60,894 nucleotides of DNA, taken from the sequence record NC_018846.1, one strand, 5' to 3'. Positions 60,001 to 60,894 of this stretch are shown piece after piece (position 1 is the stretch's first letter; each line of letters begins with the position of its first letter). This DNA comes from Escherichia phage P13374. A program made the position numbers.

Positions 60001-60894
60001 ATTGATATACCGGAACAGCAGGTGCCTTTCCTGGGGAAAATTTCAGGTGAGGTGATGCCGTATGTTGACCAGCAGAAGATGTACGACCGGATGACAGAGG
60101 TTGCGCAGTATCACGCAGAGCTGAAGAGTCTGACCGGCGCAGAAAGAACGGCGTTCATTGACGAGAACAACGGAAAATTGTCGATGAACGGGCTTATGCA
60201 GGATACCCGGAAGAGACTGAAGGATTTGCGTAAACAGCGTGATGCCATTTACGCCGACAGTACTCTCAGTCTGGCGCAACAGTCGGCGATGGTGAAATCG
60301 GTAGAGCGGGATATGAAAATTGCCGTGGATCGGTTTAACCGCGAGTACAACAAAAAAGTGGGAGTGGATTAACAGAAATGGCCCCGTACGGAAGTGCGGG
60401 GCTAATGTGATTGGGGAGGGTGAGGATACCTGACACATCAGAGGTGGCGAGGGATTCCTCCCTTGCAGAGGTCTTTCTTCGTTATCAGTGCCGTCACAAT
60501 GACGGTAATACAGAGATGAGCAGGGTGATTAACATCGCCTTTTGCTGCTTTCATTGCATTTCTCCCGCGATAGCTCAGGCGTATTTGTCAATATGCAGAA
60601 ATATTGATGAACGAATGACGGTAAATACCCTACCCAGAAAATTAACGTAAATTCACATCGTAAACTTGCGTTAATTATCTGAAATATATACTTAAATCCC
60701 CTTAAATCTTTGGGGCGCTATTGGGGCAAAGTGTGGTTGTTTGGGGCATATTTGGGGCAAAAAAGAACGTATAAAGAACGGTGTAAAATCGATTTCTTTA
60801 TGGTCAAAATGAGGTCTAACATATTGAAAAGTATATGCTCTTGGACGATCTTCGGTAATTCTGTGTTTTTAATGCTTCATGCGTTTCAATATGT

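Follow-up and report, generated by a model that had tools for sequence, protein, structure and literature searches.

The 60,894-nucleotide record of Escherichia phage P13374 (NC_018846.1), analysed at its full length and referred to here as the window, carries copies of a GGGGCA repeat close to both of its ends, those on the left lying at an integrase gene. This raises the question of what the two ends represent, and of whether the repeats are binding sites for that integrase. The reading we favour, with a probability of roughly 0.85, is that of a complete Stx2 prophage of the 933W/O104:H4 type in wrbA, whose rebuilt, lambda-like attP uses the GGGGCA pairs as Int arm sites.

Window ends and the wrbA attachment core

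The first bases of the window read GTTTCAACATGT and the last bases GTTTCAATATGT, corresponding to the attL and attR cores respectively. A 12-bp terminal direct repeat, with copies at 1-12 and 60883-60894 and nowhere else in the window (0.01 expected), provides the most direct evidence that the ends are attachment sites. Within the attL core copy (1..12, + strand), bases 1-7 (GTTTCAA) form the 7-bp overlap, or crossover, region, which is adjoined by the phage C' core-type half-site CATGTC at bases 8-13 (+ strand). The attR core region (60876..60894, + strand) was delimited by alignment with relatives and with the host junction of LC645450. It consists of the C half-site TTCATG (60876-60881), the right copy of the GTTTCAA overlap (60883-60889) and a host-derived TATGT (60890-60894) that forms the start of B', with a host-type T at 60890.

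The window ends were compared with the record ends of 933W-family and O104:H4-type Stx phages (P13803, P13363 and relatives, phiON-2011, TL-2011c, 933W and VT2-Sakai) and found to be 99.5-100% identical. Several existing annotations point to the same bases. The matching 7 bp are annotated 'attL core' in the 933W record, with 'attR core' at its right end, while the matching right end of phiON-2011 is labelled 'incomplete direct repeat for phage integration'. The equivalent bases are an 'attachment site' in AP004402 (Stx2 phage I) and a 'duplication due to insertion' in LC645450.

Prophage records deposited with their flanks give the host junctions as gccatcGTTTCAAcatgtc for attL and cttcatgGTTTCAAtatgtcc for attR, the longer junction reads being ...gccatcGTTTCAAcatgtctaagg and ...cttcatgGTTTCAAtatgtccgtac respectively. 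Each junction retains the flanking bases of its own parent, which limits strand exchange to the 7 bp GTTTCAA. The two partners can thus be written as TTCATG-GTTTCAA-CATGTC for attP and GCCATC-GTTTCAA-TATGTC for attB, with inverted core-type half-sites around the 7-bp overlap. Insertion into wrbA with duplication of the 7-bp GTTTCAA was found for the near-identical flanked prophages LC645450, L014, L097, L098 and L100. A composite of both host flanks, representing attB, is 100% identical to uninterrupted wrbA, and among 5426 complete E. coli genomes 5127 contain the rebuilt empty site unbroken. The overlap corresponds to nt 44-50 of the wrbA coding sequence (codons 15-17), and a 20-residue stub of wrbA remains after insertion. 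For the window, which is without host flank, we infer the wrbA location from these near-identical relatives and from the host-type T at 60890.

The window is thus a complete Stx2-converting prophage of the 933W/O104:H4 (Oslovirus) type, cut at both wrbA attachment junctions. Because the record spans the prophage in its integrated form, from attL core to attR core, it contains two copies of the core, one of which is dropped when the ends are joined to rebuild attP. An attP with a single core, read through the junction as ...CTTCATG-GTTTCAACATGT-CTAAGG..., occurs in Stx2 phage I (circular), in phi191 (virion-derived) and in the IMG/VR contig L018, and GGGGCA groups flank the core on both sides in all of these. 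The original prediction had described the window as a whole phage genome opened within attP. The whole genome and the single attachment site are borne out, but the form is the integrated one, with attL and attR at its ends and the core twice, rather than an opened attP. An identity of the core with attB, the check proposed at the time, was found in wrbA.

These findings agree with published work on close relatives. Sp5 excises, circularises and integrates at the wrbA of K-12 (PMC2669165), and phi191 likewise integrates at wrbA, with P13374 cited for the same site in that report (PMC4122784). The int/attL end of Sp5, as found in the VT2-Sakai record, is 99.5% identical to that of the window.

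One position at the right end sets the window apart. Here the C half-site and the overlap are separated by an additional C at 60882 (CTTCATG-C-GTTTCAA), which is found in this window only and is the sole difference from the aligned relatives (other O104:H4 phages, LC645450, phi191 and Stx2 phage I). A sequencing or assembly error at the record end is the more likely explanation; if real, the base would move the C half-site of the core-type site by 1 bp in attR.

The integrase and the GGGGCA pairs

The int gene (29..1339, - strand, with an alternative GTG start at 1363) encodes a heterobivalent tyrosine integrase of the IntBPP-1 subgroup. Residues 7-70 match the Arm-DNA-bind_2 family (PF12167, E 8e-26) and residues 202-395 the Phage_integrase family (PF00589, E 2e-17). 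The protein is 99.3-100% identical to the integrases of 933W (99.3%) and P13803. Integrases of Stx2a phage and Gifsy-2, there termed 'putative integrases', have been placed in the IntBPP-1 subgroup of arm-binding tyrosine recombinases (Smyshlyaev et al., PMC8138268). A PDB sequence search with the window Int gave matches limited to the core-binding/catalytic region of other recombinases, leaving the arm-binding domain without a structural template. Upstream of int lies xis (1392..1691, - strand), which encodes an excisionase, or recombination directionality factor, matching PF06806 ('putative excisionase', E 1e-30); its counterpart is annotated xis/exc in 933W and P13803.

The repeats conform to WYTGGGGCR and occur at 70, 81, 60709, 60720, 60740 and 60751, all on the + strand. 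These account for 6 of the 9 copies in the window and fall in two end clusters, a concentration with a binomial P of ~6e-13 (6/9 within a 266-bp span). The exact sequence TTTGGGGCR is found six times against 1.49 expected, at 70, 60709, 60740 and 60751 on the + strand and at 9507 and 20163 on the - strand, the copies at 60720 (ATTGGGGCA) and 81 (TCTGGGGCA) being one-mismatch variants. The predicted four copies on the right and two on the left are therefore present, two of them in variant form. The copies come as pairs with a spacing of exactly 11 bp, and the paired pattern GGGGCR-N5-GGGGCR occurs three times in the window (73, 60712 and 60743), at the ends only, where 0.01 is expected and 0 of 100 shuffles reach 3.

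Relative to the centre of the overlap, the six sites start at -177, -166, -146, -135, +66 and +77. The candidate P' arm-type site pair (70..89, + strand; +66..+85) consists of TTTGGGGCA at 70-78 and TCTGGGGCA at 81-89. It is located inside the int reading frame, at the 3' coding end, where it supplies codons for ..APDVPQ.., so that the two invariant prolines it encodes could account for some of its conservation. The candidate P arm-type sites (60709..60759, + strand) form two pairs, with TTTGGGGCG at 60709 and ATTGGGGCA at 60720, followed by TTTGGGGCA at both 60740 and 60751. These pairs belong to a 31-bp unit present in two copies. The number of units varies among near-identical phages, with two (four sites) in the window and in L018, and three (six sites) in 933W and in Stx2 phage I, whose record labels the units only 'repeat_region, arrangement gg; region III'.

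Two details of the original prediction are refined by this map. The left copies were described as next to int; there are indeed two of them, but they lie within the int frame rather than merely beside it. Likewise, joining the ends was expected to produce one cluster. The copies do fall on the arms of one att site, but as two groups (-177..-127 and +66..+85) and not a single cluster. The arm-type arrangement that was proposed holds: the motif is found in both arms, is distinct from the core, lies beside an integrase with an arm-binding domain and is kept in distant relatives.

The comparison with those relatives is informative, as the same arm motif is combined with other cores. Gifsy-2, Stx2a_1447 and Stx2_EH2201 'intR' have integrases that are 62-68% identical to that of the window, use other cores and host genes, and show an equivalent att layout. 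In each, two GGGGCA/GGGACA copies are located 11 bp apart within the 3' end of int, and 2-3 copies with 11-bp spacing lie 130-160 bp from the other prophage end. L074, a metagenomic contig in attP form with an integrase 70% identical to that of the window, contains two P-arm pairs and one P' pair. Across integrases 62-71% identical with different cores, GGGRCA-N5-GGGRCA is thus kept in both arms. In 80 of 80 related IMG/VR loci, with 68-100% Int identity and 41 distinct sequences at the 3' end, the pair in the 3' end of int was found at the equivalent place. When both strands of the 280 kb of related loci were searched, the only other occurrences were the P-arm pairs of two attP-form contigs. 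L018 and L074 are the IMG/VR entries whose P arms were compared, most relatives ending ~30 bp past int at prophage-caller boundaries. Core dyads around a 7-bp spacer also recur in the relatives, that of Stx2a_1447 being GTCACG-CGCGTAA-CGTGAC.

The arm-binding domain is the best-conserved part of Int, with 76-77% identity compared with 58-65% for the rest of the protein. Such conservation fits the combination of a shared arm motif with divergent cores that is seen in the sequences. Taken together, the GGGGCA repeats at the window ends are almost certainly arm-type binding sites of the adjacent integrase, judging by their placement, phasing and conservation. It also appears likely that phased GGGRCA-N5-GGGRCA pairs constitute an arm-site code of enterobacterial IntBPP-1 integrases (933W, Rac-type and Gifsy-2), with one pair always within the int coding sequence, and that the 933W-type module has kept a lambda-like tI/sib retroregulator (see below) despite an Int only remotely related to that of lambda. 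A literature search for arm sites of 933W, the wrbA phages, Rac IntR or the DUF3596 integrases, or for the GGGGCA motif, yielded no published characterisation.

Related sequences were also seen outside intact attachment sites. The IMG/VR contigs L101 (~10258-10420) and L102 (~7349-7510) contain a window-like P arm, including arm sites, box and a hairpin variant, up to ...CTTCATGG. Phage early genes, judged by inspection to be SSB-like and recombination-like ORFs, follow immediately after CTTCATGG, without the GTTTCAA core, int or xis; this looks like what remains of half an att site after a deletion or an exchange of modules. In an unrelated low-GC element represented by L099 (positions 1-70) and L103 (IMG/VR 2534682014_000005 and 2713896942_000001), 2-3 copies of TTTGGGGCA with 11-bp spacing occur directly 3' of an integrase. 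This integrase is Gram-positive-looking, with PF00589 and a sub-threshold SAM-like N-terminal match and without PF12167. The recurrence of motif and phasing next to another family of integrase probably reflects coincidence or convergence.

Other elements of the P arm

In addition to the arm sites, the P arm contains a tandem of AAGAACG with copies 11 bp apart (60763-60769 and 60774-60780, + strand), directly beside the arm sites on the core-proximal side. A related tandem, AAGTTCGT / AAATTCGT (AAGTTCG type), is found at the equivalent place in Gifsy-2, Stx2a_1447 and Stx2_EH2201. On the basis of this position and recurrence, we regard the AAGAACG tandem as candidate Xis binding sites. Closer to the core, at a distance of ~30 bp, lies a conserved box, GCTCTTGGACGATCTT (60837..60852, + strand). 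In five P arms, the distance from the GCTCYTGGRCGWTCTT box to the core is constant despite divergence of the sequence around it.

The att arms are A/T-rich (66-70%), as is the stretch of ~55 bp that separates the C' half-site from the P' sites. Scanning attP with the IHF consensus gave a single match with one mismatch (60817-60829) against 0.5 expected, and none above chance. This IHF-consensus-like site, TTTCAATATGTTA (60817..60829, - strand; one mismatch to WATCAANNNNTTR), is a weak candidate. The bases ACATATTGAAA at 60819-60829, which coincide with the IHF-like match, are also an inverted near-copy of the core TTTCAATATGT, located ~60 bp inside the P arm. The 933W-type phages read ACAGATTGAAA at the equivalent of 60819-60829, and the resemblance to the core is therefore not strictly conserved. 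A consensus scan for promoters and terminators across 60300-60894 made no call.

An inverted repeat at 60635..60681 (- strand), with 22-nt arms and a 3-nt loop, forms a tI/sib-like hairpin on the distal side of the arm sites, 28 nt from the outermost one. Located at the prophage end opposite int, it comes to lie ~250 nt downstream of the int stop codon only once the ends are joined. Folding gave -24.6 kcal/mol for the minus-strand RNA, the direction of int, versus -16.6 kcal/mol for the plus strand (both z ~-4.4). The hairpin can be aligned with lambda tI/sib, reading CAGAUAAUUAACGCAAG...CGUUAAUUUUCUG here versus CAGAGCAUUAGCGCAAG...GCGCUAAUUUUUUG in lambda. The arms are identical at 14/17 and 13/17 positions, and the two-tier stems match, with folding energies of -24.6 versus -24.3 kcal/mol. 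The shared 17-mer pattern, CAGANNATTARCGCAAG, is unique in the window (0 expected). Three variants of the hairpin occur among relatives, with changes at paired positions 21/2 (A-T to G-C) and 5/18 (A.A to C-G); these sequence differences are consistent with compensatory change. The 3' arm ends in AAUUUUCUG, and a simple terminator scan did not call the hairpin.

Lambda uses this configuration, with tI/sib following int in the non-integrated form alone, for the retroregulation of int, its hairpin being a terminator and RNase III site. Comparison with lambda suggests an int-retroregulatory or terminator role for the hairpin at 60635-60681. Among the P arms compared, a tI/sib-like hairpin was seen only in those of the 933W type, and a literature search found no published description of such an element in a 933W-type att.

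A 38-aa ORF at 60438-60554 (- strand), distal to the hairpin, gives a borderline Hok/Gef match (22.7 bits versus a cut-off of 22, over the 16 residues LCITVIVTALITKKDLC), and looks like a truncated or decayed hok. This hok-like ORF is located outside the att block common to 933W-type phages, and in relatives RefSeq names a Hok/Gef family protein. An Rfam scan of 59800-60894 at E<=1 returned three sub-threshold chance matches and no hok/sok or other family. We considered whether the tI/sib-like hairpin could be part of a hok/sok locus, and judged this unlikely: the hairpin is kept in 933W-type phages without the hok-like ORF, which assigns it to the att module and not to the ORF. A further, G+C-rich hairpin with a 9-bp stem and GGAA loop (60381-60402) directly follows the stop codon of a 2806-aa ORF (51952-60372), separating it from the hok-like ORF that runs towards it. 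A role as bidirectional terminator or stabiliser is probable; the scan with the terminator consensus made no call here either.

Alternative readings, mechanism and known systems

The GGGGCA repeats could in principle bind a protein other than Int, be it excisionase, a host nucleoid protein or a regulator of int transcription. The Xis gene (PF06806) is adjacent, and there are systems in which repeated sequences of the att arms are bound by the recombination directionality factor as well. However, the motif is present in both arms, including the coding end of int, whereas lambda-type Xis sites are restricted to the P arm. The motif furthermore accompanies an integrase in which no part is better conserved than the arm-binding domain, and a separate tandem (AAGAACG; AAGTTCG in relatives) occupies the place where Xis sites are expected. 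We consider recognition by another protein unlikely. Less probable again is an absence of function, with the P-arm copies representing a recent 31-bp tandem duplication and the P' copies kept only for Pro-containing residues of Int. Variation in the number of 31-bp units (two here versus three in 933W) would be in line with this, as would the two invariant prolines encoded by the P' copies. Yet the non-coding P arms of Gifsy-2, Stx2a_1447, Stx2_EH2201 and L074 are almost fully diverged and still retain GGGRCA pairs, with both the 11-bp spacing and the distance to the core preserved, and the pair pattern is seen nowhere else in the 280 kb of related loci or in the 60.9-kb window.

The bare fact of mutually repeated ends would also be expected if the window were a linear virion chromosome, the 12-bp terminal repeat then being a packaging-related terminal redundancy and unconnected with att. 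In flanked prophage records, including L014, the matching ends nevertheless abut wrbA, while virion-derived or permuted records are continuous through the junction point. The right copy carries a host-type base, and the empty site is present in most E. coli genomes. The host junctions rule out virion terminal redundancy as the origin of the 12-bp repeat, and the probability left for such an account is negligible. An integrated wrbA prophage with Int arm sites in both arms is the reading adopted in what follows.

From the far P arm towards int, the rebuilt attP contains the tI/sib-like hairpin, four arm-type sites, the AAGAACG tandem, the conserved box, TTCATG-GTTTCAA-CATGTC, ~55 bp of A/T-rich DNA and two arm-type sites in the 3' end of int. 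The step from this sequence to binding is one we infer by analogy with lambda. The N-terminal PF12167 domain of Int would bind the (T)GGGGCA arm sites, and the core-binding and catalytic domains the CATG-type half-sites. Bending of the arms would allow Int to bridge arm and core sites, leading to an intasome in which attP and wrbA codons 15-17 could undergo strand exchange within GTTTCAA. Excision is expected to need Xis (PF06806). The hairpin, downstream of int in the circular form only, may terminate or destabilise int transcripts in the manner of lambda tI/sib.

The attachment site and wrbA target are already annotated or published for close relatives, and the assignment of arm sites is a routine extension of the ordinary lambda-like arrangement that will not surprise specialists in site-specific recombination. 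The gain lies mainly in annotation. On the one hand, the boundaries of a medically important Stx2 prophage are fixed and the record is recognised as the integrated form. On the other, attP can be mapped in terms of its arm sites, the core dyad with its 7-bp overlap, the candidate Xis sites and the tI/sib-like element. The consensus of the arm sites appears valid across enterobacterial prophage integrases (933W, Rac-type and Gifsy-2), for which no published arm sites were found. It could aid the delimitation of prophages, the design of wrbA integration vectors and the study of Stx phage excision control.

The closest known systems are 933W and Sp5 (VT2-Sakai). The int-xis-attL end is 99.5% identical to these over window positions 1-1400, and the core GTTTCAA, the wrbA target and the arrangement of the record, with the attL core at base 1 and the attR core at its last bases, are the same. 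The P arm is 96.7% identical to that of 933W-type Stx1a phages over the shared 328 bp (60567-60894). In contrast to the window, 933W and Stx2 phage I have three 31-bp arm-site units instead of two, and 933W-type phages are without the hok-like ORF, which in the window lies distal to the shared att block. The single extra C at 60882 also distinguishes the window from 933W/Sp5.

As in lambda attP, the P' arm sites overlap the 3' end of int, which is located on that side of the core, a 7-bp overlap lies between inverted core-type half-sites, and xis is upstream of int. Reading of the lambda record placed P1 at ~-142, P2 at ~-112 and P'1-3 at +53..+83, with P'3 overlapping the int stop codon. The arm-site distances are thus comparable (~-142..-103 and +53..+83 in lambda versus -177..-127 and +66..+85 in the window), and both systems have a two-tier hairpin on the int strand just beyond the outermost P-arm site, P1 in the case of lambda. 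In the lambda record J02459, the misc_binding feature 'int 4' (27814-27854) lies inside int, ~30 bp off the P'1-P'3 sequences (~27784-27814). There are also differences from lambda. The integrases share 27% identity over 84 aa and the window Int has a different arm-binding Pfam family (PF12167), while the lambda arm motif is of the GGTCACTAT / CAGTCACTAT type rather than GGGGCA. Lambda has five arm sites, with P2 inverted relative to P1 and P'1-3, whereas the six of the window are unidirectional and arranged as 11-bp phased pairs, in an attP with no IHF match above chance.

At the level of the integrase, a parallel is provided by the IntBPP-1 subgroup (Gifsy-2 and Stx2a phage), whose members have the same DUF3596/PF12167 arm-binding and catalytic domains and are 62-71% identical to the window Int, Rac-type (intR) integrases being close relatives. 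These systems share GGGRCA-N5-GGGRCA in both arms and the GCTCYTGGRCGWTCTT box near the core. They differ in the number of P-arm pairs, which ranges from 1 to 3, and in the core itself: Rac-type phages have CACGCAGTTAA-type cores, and Gifsy-2 uses another site.
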